Positions 33,823 through 40,532 of a DNA stretch of 64,000 nucleotides are shown here, in pieces. Every line of letters begins with the position of its first letter. Positions within the stretch are counted from its first letter, which is position 1. The stretch lies in NCBI RefSeq assembly GCF_002854065.1, contig NZ_CP024147.1; one strand, written 5' to 3'. The notes beneath the pieces are model-generated. The model was not told the origin of the DNA. It made no database searches and worked only from the letters and a program-made list of their open reading frames with translations. Source of the stretch: Escherichia coli. GTDB lineage: Bacteria; Pseudomonadota; Gammaproteobacteria; Enterobacterales; Enterobacteriaceae. The translations under genes were made by a program, and so were the position numbers.

Positions 33823-36800
33823 ATGGACGTCAGTCGCAGACAATTTTTTAAAATCTGCGCGGGCGGTATGGCTGGAACAACAGTAGCGGCATTGGGCTTT
33901 GCCCCGAAGCAAGCACTGGCTCAGGCGCGAAACTACAAATTATTACGCGCTAAAGAGATCCGTAACACCTGCACATACTGTTCCGTAGGTTGCGGGCTAT
34001 TGATGTATAGCCTGGGTGATGGCGCGAAAAACGCCAGAGAAGCGATTTATCACATTGAAGGTGACCCGGATCATCCGGTAAGCCGTGGTGCGCTGTGCCC
34101 GAAAGGGGCCGGTTTGCTGGATTACGTCAACAGCGAAAACCGTCTGCGCTACCCGGAATATCGTGCGCCAGGTTCTGACAAATGGCAGCGCATTAGCTGG
34201 GAAGAAGCATTCTCCCGTATTGCGAAGCTGATGAAAGCTGACCGTGACGCTAACTTTATTGAAAAGAACGAGCAGGGTGTAACGGTAAACCGTTGGCTTT
34301 CTACCGGTATGCTGTGTGCCTCCGGTGCCAGCAACGAAACCGGGATGCTGACCCAGAAATTTGCCCGCTCCCTCGGGATGCTGGCGGTAGACAACCAGGC
34401 GCGCGTCTGACACGGACCAACGGTAGCAAGTCTTGCTCCAACATTTGGTCGCGGTGCGATGACCAACCACTGGGTGGATATCAAAAACGCTAACGTCGTG
34501 ATGGTGATGGGCGGTAACGCTGCTGAAGCGCATCCCGTCGGTTTCCGCTGGGCGATGGAAGCGAAAAACAACAACGATGCAACCTTGATCGTTGTCGATC
34601 CCCGTTTTACGCGTACCGCATCTGTGGCGGATATCTACGCGCCTATTCGTTCCGGTACGGACATTACGTTCCTGTCTGGCGTTTTGCGCTACCTGATCGA
34701 AAACAACAAAATCAACGCCGAATACGTTAAGCATTACACCAACGCCAGCCTGCTGGTGCGTGATGATTTTGCTTTCGAAGACGGTCTGTTCAGCGGCTAC
34801 GACGCTGAAAAACGCCAGTACGATAAGTCGTCCTGGAACTATCAGTTCGATGAAAACGGCTATGCAAAACGCGATGAAACACTGACTCATCCGCGCTGTG
34901 TGTGGAACCTGCTGAAAGAGCACGTTTCCCGCTACACGCCGGACGTCGTTGAAAACATCTGCGGTACGCCAAAAGCCGACTTCCTGAAAGTGTGTGAAGT
35001 GCTGGCCTCCACCAGCGCACCGGATCGCACAACCACCTTCCTGTACGCGCTGGGCTGGACGCAGCACACCGTGGGAGCGCAGAACATCCGTACTATGGCG
35101 ATGATCCAGTTGCTGCTCGGTAACATGGGTATGGCCGGTGGCGGCGTGAACGCATTGCGTGGTCACTCCAACATTCAGGGGCTGACTGACTTAGGCCTGC
35201 TCTCTACCAGCCTGCCAGGTTATCTGACGCTGCCGTCAGAAAAACAGGTTGATTTGCAGTCGTATCTGGAAGCGAACACGCCGAAAGCGACGCTGGCTGA
35301 TCAGGTGAACTACTGGAGCAACTATCCGAAGTTCTTCGTTAGCCTGATGAAATCTTTCTATGGCGATGCCGCGCAGAAAGAGAACAACTGGGGCTATGAC
35401 TGGCTGCCGAAGTGGGACCAGACCTACGACGTCATCAAGTATTTCAACATGATGGATGAAGGCAAAGTCACCGGTTATTTCTGCCAGGGCTTTAACCCGG
35501 TTGCGTCCTTCCCGGACAAAAACAAAGTGGTGAGCTGCCTGAGCAAGCTGAAGTACATGGTGGTTATCGATCCGCTGGTGACTGAAACCTCTACCTTCTG
35601 GCAGAACCACGGCGAGTCGAACGATGTCGATCCGGCGTCTATTCAGACTGAAGTATTCCGTCTGCCTTCGACCTGCTTTGCTGAAGAGGATGGTTCTATC
35701 GCTAACTCCGGTCGCTGGTTGCAGTGGCACTGGAAAGGTCAGGACGCGCCGGGCGAAGCGCGTAACGACGGCGAAATTCTGGCGGGTATCTACCATCATC
35801 TGCGCGAGTTGTACCAGGCCGAAGGTGGTAAAGGCGTAGAACCGCTGATGAAGATGAGCTGGAACTACAAGCAGCCGCACGAACCGCAATCTGACGAAGT
35901 AGCTAAAGAGAACAACGGCTATGCGCTGGAAGATCTCTATGATGCTAATGGCGTGCTGATTGCGAAGAAAGGTCAGTTGCTGAGTAGCTTTGCGCATCTG
36001 CGTGATGACGGTACAACCGCATCTTCTTGCTGGATCTACACCGGTAGCTGGACAGAGCAGGGCAACCAGATGGCTAACCGCGATAACTCCGACCCGTCTG
36101 GTCTGGGGAATACGCTGGGATGGGCCTGGGCGTGGCCGCTCAACCGTCGCGTGCTGTACAACCGTGCTTCGGCGGATATCAACGGTAAACCGTGGGATCC
36201 GAAACGGATGCTGATCCAGTGGAACGGCAGCAAGTGGACGGGTAACGATATTCCTGACTTCGGCAATGCCGCACCGGGTACGCCAACCGGGCCGTTTATC
36301 ATGCAGCCGGAAGGGATGGGACGCCTGTTTGCCATCAACAAAATGGCGGAAGGTCCGTTCCCGGAACACTACGAGCCGATTGAAACGCCGCTGGGCACTA
36401 ACCCGCTGCATCCGAACGTGGTGTCTAACCCGGTTGTTCGTCTGTATGAACAAGACGCACTGCGGATGGGTAAAAAAGAGCAGTTCCCGTATGTGGGTAC
36501 GACCTATCGTCTGACCGAGCACTTCCACACCTGGACCAAGCACGCCTTGCTCAACGCAATTGCTCAGCCGGAACAGTTTGTGGAAATCAGCGAAACGCTG
36601 GCGGCGGCGAAAGGCATTAATAATGGCGATCGTGTCACTGTCTCCAGCAAGCGTGGATTTATCCGCGCGGTGGCTGTGGTAACGCGCCGTCTGAAGCCGC
36701 TGAATGTAAACGGTCAGCAGGTTGAAACGGTGGGTATTCCAATCCACTGGGGCTTTGAGGGTGTCGCGCGTAAAGGTTATATCGCTAACACTCTGACGCC

Positions 36801-36870
36801 GAATGTCGGTGATGCAAACTCGCAAACGCCGGAATATAAAGCGTTCTTAGTCAACATCGAGAAGGCGTAA
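33823..36870 (+). CDS. fdnG: formate dehydrogenase-N alpha subunit (selenoprotein; UGA at 34408..34410 decoded as Sec)
   Basis: Tat signal MDVSRRQFFKICAGG; ORFs 33823..34410 and 34459..36870 are in the same frame, separated only by the in-frame TGA in ...DNQARV-U-HGPTVASL; total 1015 codons. Confidence 0.95.
34411..34450 (+). promoter_or_regulatory. SECIS element region (mRNA hairpin for SelB-directed Sec insertion)
   Basis: Sequence immediately 3-prime of the fdnG UGA (CACGGACCAACGGTAGCAAGTCTTGCTCC...) contains a GCAAG-TCTTGC stem-loop in the expected position. Confidence 0.5.
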
Positions 36871-37767: not shown

Positions 37768-38413
37768 GTCGAAAATGATTGTGCGCACCAAATTTATTGA
37801 TCGCGCCTGTCACTGGACCGTGGTGATTTGCTTCTTCCTGGTGGCGCTGTCCGGGATTTCGTTCTTCTTCCCGACGCTGCAATGGCTGACGCAAACCTTC
37901 GGTACGCCGCAGATGGGACGTATTTTGCACCCATTCTTCGGCATTGCGATTTTCGTCGCACTGATGTTTATGTTTGTGCGTTTTGTGCATCACAACATCC
38001 CGGATAAGAAAGATATTCCGTGGCTGTTGAACATTGTCGAAGTATTAAAAGGCAATGAGCACAAAGTGGCGGATGTCGGTAAGTACAACGCCGGGCAAAA
38101 GATGATGTTCTGGTCGATCATGAGCATGATTTTCGTGCTGTTGGTGACCGGGGTGATTATCTGGCGTCCGTACTTTGCGCAGTACTTCCCGATGCAGGTT
38201 GTCCGTTATAGCCTGCTGATCCACGCGGCTGCCGGTATCATCCTGATCCACGCCATCCTGATCCATATGTATATGGCATTCTGGGTGAAAGGATCGATTA
38301 AAGGGATGATCGAAGGGAATGTGAGCCGTCTCTGGGCGAAGAAACACCATCCGCGCTGGTATCGTGAAATCGAGAAGGCAGAAGCGAAAAAAGAGAGTGA
38401 AGAAGGGATATAA
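37760..38413 (+). CDS. fdnI: formate dehydrogenase-N gamma subunit (cytochrome b556)
   Basis: Start [19 protein letters not shown] overlapping the fdnH stop by 8 bp; 217 aa. Confidence 0.9.
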
Positions 38414-38434
38414 TCTCTATTGAACTTTAAGCTG

Positions 38435-38464
38435 AAAATGGCGCTGTAAGAAGCGCCATTTTCA
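38435..38464 (+). terminator. rho-independent terminator of fdnGHI
   Basis: AAAATGGCGCT-gtaaga-AGCGCCATTTT followed by a T-run. Confidence 0.6.
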
Positions 38465-38480
38465 TATTGTAGACAACGTA

Positions 38481-38600
38481 GGCTTTGTTCATGCCGGATG
38501 CGGCGTGAACGCCTTATCCGGCCTACAAACCGTTCAAATCCAATAGATTGCAGTGAACATGTAGGCCTGATAAGCGTAGAGCATCAGGCAATGTTGCATT
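38481..38600. repeat. REP/BIME cluster
   Basis: GCCGGATGCGGCGTGAACGCCTTATCCGGCCTAC ... GTAGGCCTGATAAGCGTAGAGCATCAGGCA. Confidence 0.6.
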
Positions 38601-38640
38601 TGTCATCAGTTTCAAATGGCGCTTTATAAGGTGCCATTTT

Positions 38641-38925
38641 TTATTGCGTAACCAGACGGCGTAATCGCGACACATCCACCGTTTTTTCAGCCTCTGCCAG
38701 ACTCCAGGCGTTTTGCAGATTCAGCCACATTTGCGGCGAACTGCCGATCACCACGGAAAGTTTAATTGCCATTTCTGGCGTCAAAGCTGCTTTTCCGGTC
38801 AGCAATCGGCTTGCCGTTGAGGGCGCAATTTCCATTGCTCTGGCAAACTCGCGCAGGCTGACATTAAGTTCGTCCAGTGATTCCTGAATAATGTCCCCCG
38901 GGCGGGGATGATTGGCCATTTTCAT
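38641..38925 (-). CDS. yddM: HigA-type HTH antitoxin (YddM)
   Basis: 94 aa; XRE-type HTH ([33 protein letters not shown]); start overlaps the higB-like stop. Confidence 0.8.
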
Positions 38926-39203
38926 CAGTGATAGTCCTCGTAATCCAGTATGTATGCATCGCCATTGACGAATTCAAATGTGATTCGCCAGTTGCCCGAG
39001 ACAGATATCGCCCAAATTCCATCGCGATCGCCGCTTAACGGGTGTAGTCGGTAACCGGGCATATCGATATCAGCAAGACAGCTTGCTGCATCAATCACAG
39101 CGAGTCGGTGGCGTAATCGTTTGACTTGCGTCGGTATAACGCCGGAGGTTTTGCCGAGAAGAAACAAGTCACGCAATCCCTTGTGTCTGAAATTCATTAT
39201 CAT
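38925..39203 (-). CDS. HigB-like toxin (RelE/ParE superfamily, killer-protein family)
   Basis: 92 aa [14 protein letters not shown]...[39 protein letters not shown]; toxin-then-antitoxin order typical of hig loci. Confidence 0.75.
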
Positions 39204-39388
39204 CTCTTCATCCTTGTTCCCTCGAAAGGAACACTATCACTATTGTTCCGTGCAGCGCAACAAATTTCGCTACGTTTTCGCGAATTGTGAGGGGAAAGAT
39301 GGCGGAGGAAAAGAAGAAGAATGAAATTGCGGAAAGCGTCTCGCAAAACAGGCTGCGACCCGAACATGGGAGTCGCAGCAAAGGCCTC

Positions 39389-40399
39389 TTAGCGACGGAA
39401 ATCAATCACCATACGGGCACGGATTTTGCCTTCTTCCATCTCGGTAAAGATGGTGTTGATGTCCGCTAACGGACGCAGGGCGACTTTCGGCACCACTTTG
39501 CCTTCGGCCGCAAACTGGAAGGCTTCGGTTAGATCCTGGCGCGTGCCGACCAGCGAACCGACCACTTCAATACCATCCAGCACAAGGCGTGGGATGTCCA
39601 GGCTCATAGATTCCAGCGGTAGACCGACAGCCACAACACGACCGCCTGCACGGACAGCATCAACTGCCGAGTTAAACGCCGCTTTAGCTACCGCTGTCAC
39701 CACCGCGGCGTGAGCGCCACCGGTTTTATCCTGCACAATTTTGGCGGCGTCTTCGGTGCGTGAGTTAATCGCTAAATCTGCGCCCATTTCGGTTGCCAGT
39801 TTTAACTGCTCATCATTGACATCAATGGCGATCACTTTCGCGTTAAAGACATTCTTCGCGTATTGCAGGGCGAGGTTACCCAGACCGCCAAGACCGTAGA
39901 TAGCAATCCACTGACCGGGACGAATTTTTGACAGTTTAACGGCTTTGTAGGTGGTGACCCCCGCACAGGTAATGCTGCTGGCCGCCGCCGAGTCCAGACC
40001 ATCTGGCACTTTTACCGCGTAATCGGCGACCACGATGCACTCTTCCGCCATCCCGCCATCAACGCTGTATCCGGCATTTTTAACTGAACGGCAGAGCGTT
40101 TCGTTACCACTGTTACAGTATTCGCAATGACCGCATCCTTCGTAAAACCACGCCACGCTGGCACGATCGCCTGGTTTTAATGAAGTAACACCAGGGCCAA
40201 CTTCTGCCACCACACCGATGCCTTCATGGCCCAGAATTACGCCAGTTTTGTCACCAAAATCGCCATTCTTAACATGAAGATCGGTATGACATACACCACA
40301 ACACTCCATTTTCAGCAGGGCTTCGCCATGTTTCAGTGAGCGCAGTGTTTTATCCGTAACGTCAACATGATGATCCTTCGTAACAACTGCAGCCTTCAT
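39389..40399 (-). CDS. adhP: alcohol dehydrogenase, propanol-preferring (Zn-dependent)
   Basis: AGGAGGAAC ribosome-binding site then [13 protein letters not shown]; 336 aa; Zn-ADH motifs ([17 protein letters not shown]). Confidence 0.9.
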
Positions 40400-40532
40400 A
40401 GTTCCTCCTTTTCGGATGATGTTCTGCATAGCAGGTGAGGCAAATGAGATTTATTCGCCACTACCCAGTATGGATGAGATCTGAAAAAGGGAGAGGGAAA
40501 TAGCCCGGTAGCCTTCACTACCGGGCGCAGGC

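Follow-up and report, generated by a model that had tools for sequence, protein, structure and literature searches.

Whether the solitary yddM gene of Escherichia coli K-12 is the remnant of a complete toxin-antitoxin operon, or whether a toxin gene was added next to it in some strains, is the question raised by the interval between fdnI and adhP. In the 64,000-nucleotide stretch of E. coli DNA that was analysed here (hereafter, the window), this interval has the order fdnI, yddM/higA, higB, adhP. Our analysis indicated that the locus is, with high probability, a chromosomal type II toxin-antitoxin operon that is intact, belongs to the Rts1 (Proteus vulgaris) HigB/HigA family and is expressed from a minus-strand promoter between adhP and higB. 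The locus itself is already known; it is annotated in RefSeq, and the difference between K-12 and pathogenic strains was published in 2020 (PMC7232551). What the present analysis adds is the assignment of the toxin to the Rts1 HigB family instead of ParE, outgroup evidence for an ancestral pair, and a natural series of alleles.

The gene pair and its two products

In the list of open reading frames (ORFs) for the region of 36.5-41.5 kb, two adjacent frames were found on the minus strand, one of 92 aa (39203..38925) and one of 94 aa (38925..38641). The toxin frame comes first, and the two frames overlap by 1 bp, a single A being common to the TGA stop of the toxin and the ATG of the antitoxin; the minus-strand sequence across the junction is ...GAC TAT CAC TGATGAAAATGGCC (also given as ...TAT CAC TGATGAAAATGG). 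The toxin gene, higB (38925..39203, minus strand), encodes WP_000605676.1, named 'type II toxin-antitoxin system RelE/ParE family toxin' by RefSeq, and the antitoxin gene, higA/yddM (38641..38925, minus strand), encodes WP_000781370.1, an HTH-XRE DNA-binding protein. On one side, the end of fdnI (plus strand) is at 38413, and on the other side adhP (39389..40429) and maeA lie upstream of higB, both likewise on the minus strand. RefSeq annotates both genes of the pair in strain 100416, in which they are 100% identical to those of the window. The original prediction had placed a toxin gene of 92 aa ahead of yddM with a 1-bp stop/start overlap, and the coordinates, sizes and order of the two frames all agreed with it. 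Elsewhere in the region, fdnG (33823-36870, plus strand) was split in the ORF list by an in-frame TGA at codon 196 (about 34408-34410, between NQARV and HGPT in the translation), which we read as the selenocysteine codon known from formate dehydrogenase-N alpha and not as the sign of a pseudogene.

The toxin matched the Pfam family PF05015 (HigB-like_toxin) with an E value of 1.5e-17 over model positions 2-91 of 91, and this was the sole Pfam domain at E<=10; a profile search of the toxin against NCBIfam returned no family match. When all PDB sequences were searched, the top matches were the P. vulgaris Rts1 entries 'Killer protein / Endoribonuclease HigB' 4MCT, 4MCX, 4PX8 and 4YPB, with E values of about 1e-31 across residues 1-92 (phmmer E=8e-32 for 4MCT, chain B). 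The end-to-end match to PF05015, together with the phmmer match to P. vulgaris HigB, illustrated that the toxin ORF is not a chance one. The BLASTP alignment with Rts1 HigB showed 57% identity and 74% positives with zero gaps, and thus the residue positions of the two proteins are directly comparable. It has been demonstrated by mutagenesis that His54, Asp90, Tyr91 and His92 of Rts1 HigB are needed for ribosome-dependent mRNA cleavage (Schureck et al., PMC5027501); in the same protein, Arg73 touches the scissile phosphate and Asn71 neighbours His92 (PMC5027501). The toxin of the window possesses H54, N71, R73, D90, Y91 and H92, with the C-terminal end ...YEDYH, and the critical residues are also kept in all of the intact orthologs compared. 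The module had been predicted to be of the toxin-first HigB/HigA type, with a killer-protein toxin of the RelE/ParE superfamily, and both the order of the frames and the match to the HigB-like killer family PF05015 bore this out; none of the RelE-fold catalytic residues of Rts1 HigB is missing.

The name of the toxin nevertheless points to another reading, namely that it is a gyrase poison of the ParE type and not an mRNA endonuclease of the HigB type. It has been placed in the ParE_toxin superfamily cl21503 under the name ParE-2 (PMC7232551), and its RefSeq product name is the generic 'RelE/ParE family toxin'. However, a ParE_toxin domain was not reported at the Pfam threshold at which PF05015 was the only match, the 57% identity extends over the full length of a HigB with solved ribosome-bound structures, and H54 is conserved together with the catalytic D-Y-H triad at the C-terminus. 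The ParE reading is thus extremely improbable, and the toxin, as judged from its sequence, is a HigB of the Rts1 type with a complete active site.

Over all of its 94 aa, the antitoxin was 100% identical to PDB 2ICP/2ICT, which bear the name 'antitoxin higa', and its fold is shown by its own crystal structure. A review assigns 2ICP/2ICT to YddM of E. coli CFT073, and this assignment rests on the PDB match and that review. Against the NCBIfam equivalog TIGR02607 (antidote_HigA), the protein scored 93.7 bits with a cut-off of 47.7, which confirmed its predicted identity as HigA. In addition, it contains an HTH_3 domain (E=5e-9) and aligns with Rts1 HigA across residues 7-87. A survey of K-12 transcription factors by ChIP-exo and knockout includes YddM as an uncharacterised candidate of the Xre family (PMC6237786).

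By homology with the Rts1 proteins, HigB (92 aa) would be an endonuclease with the RelE fold whose substrate is mRNA bound in the A site of the ribosome and which, by analogy with Rts1 HigB, would prefer A-rich codons. The same analogy would make His54 the general base, with Arg73 steadying the transition state and Tyr91 placed at the leaving group, backed by Asp90 and His92. HigA/YddM (94 aa) would be translated from the start codon that overlaps the toxin stop, and its dimer would bind and neutralise two HigB monomers in a HigB2-HigA2 complex. We infer the toxicity of HigB, the cleavage of mRNA in the A site, the neutralisation by HigA and the binding of the operators from a homolog with 57% identity in the toxin and about 45% in the antitoxin; a search of the literature found no functional test of this E. 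coli HigB.

Putative operators, promoter and terminators

Upstream of higB, the sequence contains a Shine-Dalgarno-like AAGGA (39211..39215, minus strand), 7 nt upstream of the higB ATG, and AAGGA or AGGA is kept in most of the Escherichia and Citrobacter orthologs in the alignment of upstream regions. Next to it, a search for inverted repeats revealed a putative operator of 17 bp, O2 (39216..39232), with the form GTTCC-N7-GGAAC, and a second putative 17-bp operator, O1 (39245..39261), is a direct repeat of it with the form GTTCC-N7-GCAAC (GTTGC-N7-GGAAC on the minus strand). The two are spaced by 29 bp from centre to centre. In 17 upstream sequences from 5 genera, the arms of O2 and the GTTGCG and G.AAC of O1 were invariant, whereas the adjoining sequence varied, and the arms of O1 and O2 were also present in the toxin-less K-12 and O157. 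In Enterobacteriaceae bacterium 89, Pluralibacter and Enterobacter sp. CC120223-11, O1 is a perfect GTTGCG-N5-CGCAAC palindrome. This conservation suggests that HigA would repress the operon through two 17-bp repeats, GTTSC-N7-GSAAC, 29 bp apart across the promoter.

Between O1 and O2 lie the tandem hexamers AATAGT GATAGT (39233..39244, minus strand), a candidate -10 region read from the sequence, and by eye a weak promoter candidate, TTGCGC-16-GATAGT, can be made out. A consensus scan of 38400-39450 returned no sigma-70 promoter at the threshold of the tool. A genomic SELEX study in K-12 located an RpoD-holoenzyme site in the yddM-adhP spacer. No Rfam match was found in the hig operon at a permissive threshold.

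A terminator scan detected an intrinsic terminator of adhP (39342..39379, minus strand), with the stem GCTGCGAC...GTCGCAGC followed by CTGTTTTGCG, which separates adhP from the hig promoter. At the other end of the operon, a hairpin right after the yddM stop (38614..38640) is likely to be a bidirectional terminator. This hairpin has a second copy at 38436-38462; the two copies, of 27 nt each, are 81% identical and terminator-like (AAATGGCGC...GCGCCATTTT), and they flank a segment of 151 nt with REP-type palindromes (38513-38574). The Rfam matches in the fdnI-yddM spacer were REP-related and all below threshold (naRNA4 and ES036). The arrangement looks like the insertion of a REP/BIME element into the convergent fdnI/yddM terminator, or a duplication of that terminator. 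The fdnI-yddM spacer is about 180 nt longer in K-12.

Distribution of the toxin gene and origin of the toxin-less state

The toxin gene of 279 bp was present in 1330 of the 5426 complete E. coli genomes, always in a single copy adjoining yddM and under the same RefSeq label as in the window, and about three quarters of these genomes are therefore without higB. Among the carriers are UTI89, NRG857c, the type strain ATCC 11775, ATCC 25922, clone D i14 and an APEC O2:K1:H7 strain. Not all of the toxin genes are intact. In an O25b:H4 genome (NZ_CP015085.1, locus L004, 801-1078), the gene measures 278 bp and is flagged 'frameshifted' by RefSeq; the loss of a G at nt 98 leads to a stop at codon 36, and YddM is intact. 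The span of 278 bp was found in 24 of 60 evenly spaced rows of the toxin-positive ranking, which suggests that roughly 40% of the toxin-positive genomes, or about 530, carry this broken allele, the 'frameshifted' flag having been checked in one genome. In strain JA0265, the toxin gene has an in-frame deletion of 9 bp.

A mosaic allele was observed in O157:H7 TR01 (NZ_CP033605.1, locus L048, 656-880), which sets the strain apart from other O157 strains. Of higB, the allele holds no more than the final 47 nt (100% identity with the window), and operator O2 is lost; at the join, a K-12-like O1 is followed by a segment of the toxin haplotype with the T-tract of the adhP terminator, and its YddM is the common allele and not the O157 variant. 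The allele reflects an independent deletion or recombination event, or possibly an assembly artefact. Together, the intact gene, the 1-bp frameshift, the deletion of the whole ORF and the mosaic deletion constitute a natural allelic series of four states, which could offer a means to study why orphan antitoxins persist.

The interval of 38300-39700 in the window showed at least 99% identity in 13 of 5476 matching E. coli records. The best match was strain 100416, from human stool in the Gambia (100%), and UTI89 and similar strains were about 97% identical over this interval, yet 99.3% in the toxin gene. So few close matches over 1.4 kb indicate that the strain of the window carries an uncommon spacer haplotype.

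K-12 MG1655 has the gene order fdnI, yddM, adhP, with a yddM-adhP spacer of 145 nt and no toxin ORF, and O157:H7 has the same arrangement. Four further toxin-less strains, drawn from different coverage classes of the genome search, showed the same spacer haplotype (145-147 nt). The statement in the original prediction that K-12 keeps only a solitary yddM here thus proved correct for K-12, for O157 and for these four strains, and the comparison of the K-12 yddM-adhP region with the window found no such upstream ORF in K-12. Because a common spacer haplotype was present in all 6 of the toxin-less E. coli sampled, a single shared deletion is indicated. In the alignment of the K-12 interval with the window (A1), the whole toxin ORF is missing and the inverted-repeat block is retained, and the segment between this block and adhP is replaced, with a 51-nt indel and the loss of the terminator T-tract; the spacer is about 70% identical between the haplotypes, whereas the flanking genes are about 96-97% identical. 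In the toxin-less haplotype (locus L001, 2380-2433, against 39280-39351 of the window), the stem of the adhP terminator is kept, and the T-tract with about 90 nt after it is swapped for about 40 unrelated nt. Since the T-tract is replaced, transcription of adhP might read through into yddM in strains of the K-12 type.

The extent of the deletion was placed differently by two MAFFT alignments: A1 pairs the start region of the toxin with the start of yddM, whereas A3 pairs the 18 nt before yddM with the 3' end of the toxin. Because the flanks are too diverged, the endpoints can be given no more finely than about +/-20 nt. In the toxin-less strains GF50 and PapRG-06-3, however, CACTGATGA precedes the ATG of yddM and corresponds to the His92 codon and stop of the toxin (CAC TGA). 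This remnant favours the placement in A3 and is direct evidence for a deletion and not an insertion. As a side observation, the 17-bp O1 of PapRG-06-3 (locus L052, 549-696) is the exact reverse complement of that of K-12 (locus L001, 2305-2451), GTTGCGTAGGAAGGAAC vs GTTCCTTCCTACGCAAC, and the O2 spacer and the loop of the adhP terminator also differ between the two strains; the change in O1 looks like a small inversion inside a quasi-palindrome.

To reveal which state is ancestral, species-representative genomes were scanned with HigA, which yielded 41 loci, and these were searched by tblastn with HigB, HigA, FdnI and AdhP. A full-length HigB directly upstream of HigA, with FdnI at the opposite end of the pair, was found in E. 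albertii, in Escherichia sp. MOD1-EC7003 and in two 'E. coli' representatives, and in all four of these genomes AdhP lies beyond the toxin. The pair also adjoins fdnI in 10 of 12 Citrobacter loci and in Enterobacteriaceae bacterium 89, Pluralibacter and Enterobacter sp. CC120223-11, while in Cedecea, Buttiauxella, Chimaeribacter and Erwinia the pair is present and fdnI is not nearby. In Citrobacter sp. FP75 (locus L008, 2723-3000) and C. portucalensis A60 (locus L014, 2723-3000), the toxin is decayed next to an intact HigA by fdnI, and the two decays are independent, with an internal deletion in one and the loss of the N-terminal part in the other. In C. youngae (locus L011), ACG stands in place of the first ATG of the toxin, and an ATG at codon 3 is left.

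Selective constraints were evaluated with Nei-Gojobori estimates, each against the gene of the window. In comparison with Citrobacter species, omega was 0.04-0.12 for higB, with dS of about 0.7-1.6, and 0.03-0.08 for higA. Against E. albertii, we found 8 synonymous and 0 non-synonymous differences in higB and 10 synonymous and 0 non-synonymous differences in higA, with dS of 0.14-0.17 across the two genes and both proteins 100% identical. This identity is thus a result of purifying selection; a recent transfer from E. albertii, which the identical proteins might suggest, is rejected by the 18 synonymous differences over the two genes. The synteny with fdnI in the outgroups and the purifying selection indicate that the intact pair is ancestral and the K-12 state derived. 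On this comparative evidence, the pair at the fdnI-adhP site predates the separation of Escherichia and Citrobacter. The view that the strain of the window retains the ancestral intact pair, put forward in the original prediction, is therefore upheld by the outgroup synteny, by divergence that is dominated by synonymous changes and by the CAC TGA remnant in some toxin-less strains.

The opposite scenario, in which K-12 is ancestral and higB was inserted before a solitary yddM or the pair was imported by recombination, draws on the promoter-proximal flanks, which are about 70% identical with a 51-nt indel against about 96-97% for the neighbouring genes, and on the identity of both proteins with those of E. 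albertii. It would have to account for the synteny of the pair with fdnI, seen in all of the Escherichia outgroups that were recovered and in 12 Citrobacter loci, for an E. albertii identity that is confined to the protein level (8 + 10 synonymous differences, dS 0.14-0.17), and for the last toxin codon and stop retained before yddM in GF50 and PapRG. In addition, the exact insertion of an ORF between the operator and the start codon is mechanistically implausible. We regard this scenario as very unlikely. According to the comparison, one shared deletion removed nearly all of the toxin ORF from the majority of E. coli, K-12 and O157 among them, and in other lineages the toxin was inactivated independently; the antitoxin was retained each time.

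An intact ORF might still encode a toxin that is attenuated or re-purposed, as SehA is, in which case the locus would not be a working toxin-antitoxin module. SehA illustrates that a HigB-like protein can lose its nuclease activity, and the repeated loss of the toxin in E. coli and Citrobacter, while the antitoxin stayed, fits such a reading. However, SehA is missing the active site of HigB and carries an additional helix, whereas the toxin of the window has all of the active-site residues, and the strong purifying selection on intact higB (omega 0.04-0.12; 0 non-synonymous differences from E. albertii) argues for maintained activity. We consider a loss or change of function improbable and a working module the better explanation.

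The loci examined show at least four or five independent inactivations of the toxin and not one loss of the antitoxin. The repeated loss or breakage of the toxin (the K-12-type deletion, the frameshift in an O25b:H4 genome, TR01 and two Citrobacter) indicates that it is dispensable and possibly costly. The YddM protein WP_000781370.1 is common to K-12, UTI89, NRG857c, an O25b:H4 genome and 4 of the 5 other toxin-less strains examined, and it occurs in 7 of the 8 toxin-less or toxin-broken E. coli genomes examined; the exception is the O157 strain ECP19-598, with the variant WP_001302113.1. Between K-12 and the window, the yddM genes show 5 synonymous and 0 non-synonymous differences, and both operator repeats are kept in the toxin-less and toxin-broken genomes examined, except O2 in TR01. 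Since YddM and the operators are nearly invariant despite the repeated loss of the toxin, YddM may act without it. It is conceivable, although we hold it to be the less probable case, that YddM has a toxin-independent function, either as a domesticated, autoregulated transcription factor or as an 'anti-addiction' immunity factor that would shield toxin-less strains from higB when it arrives by recombination or on plasmids. Orphan antitoxins were reported to be abundant across E. coli lineages in a study of 950 genomes. Because K-12 hosts encode an identical YddM, assays of HigB toxicity need a delta-yddM background.

Comparison with known toxin-antitoxin systems

The locus corresponds to a module that has been described before. 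Bustamante & Vidal (2020, PMC7232551) listed TA20 of the AIEC strain NRG857c, consisting of 'ParE-2' (c1,526,513-1,526,791) and 'HigA-2' (c1,526,229-1,526,513), and reported that it is also present in UPEC CFT073, while K-12 and HS retain the antitoxin only. In the RefSeq record of NRG857c, these coordinates are those of the toxin and yddM between fdnI and adhP. TA20 is thus the same locus as in the window, with an identical antitoxin and a toxin one residue apart (S41C), and it differs in allele and name only, the label ParE-2 standing against the Rts1 HigB family.

The HigB/HigA pair of K-12 (YgjN/YgjM) is also a toxin-first type II system with an mRNA interferase of the RelE superfamily and an HTH antitoxin, but it is a distinct pair at a different locus (the fadH-rlmG interval), with a reciprocal presence and absence among strains. 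YgjN presumably belongs to a different Pfam family from the toxin of the window, and YgjM is a protein of 138 aa. The YgjN/YgjM module is complete in K-12 and HS, and NRG857c and CFT073 keep only its higA (PMC7232551).

Salmonella SehA/SehB shares the toxin-first order, a HigB-like fold and an autorepressing HTH antitoxin. However, SehA is without the active site of HigB and carries an additional C-terminal helix, whereas the toxin of the window keeps the active site; SehA, which is 25% identical to Rts1 HigB, has been reported to inhibit RNase III and not to cleave mRNA.

A further close counterpart is HigB/HigA of Rts1 (Proteus vulgaris; PDB 4MCT, 4MCX, 4YPB), with the same toxin-first operon, the same toxin length of 92 aa, the same catalytic set (H54/R73/D90/Y91/H92 with N71) and an HTH-XRE antitoxin, and with two operator sites in the promoter, which are putative in the window. 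In Rts1, the two operators overlap the -35 and -10 elements, a HigA dimer, either free or together with HigB, occupies each of them, and the main repressor is HigA alone. The two systems differ in three respects. First, the Rts1 pair is plasmid-borne, while that of the window is chromosomal and vertically inherited at a fixed site. Second, the antitoxin has 94 aa in the window and 104 aa in Rts1, and it has diverged more than the toxin. Third, the putative operators of the window are 17-bp GTTSC-N7-GSAAC repeats 29 bp apart, whereas those of Rts1 are 21-bp sites about 22 bp apart.
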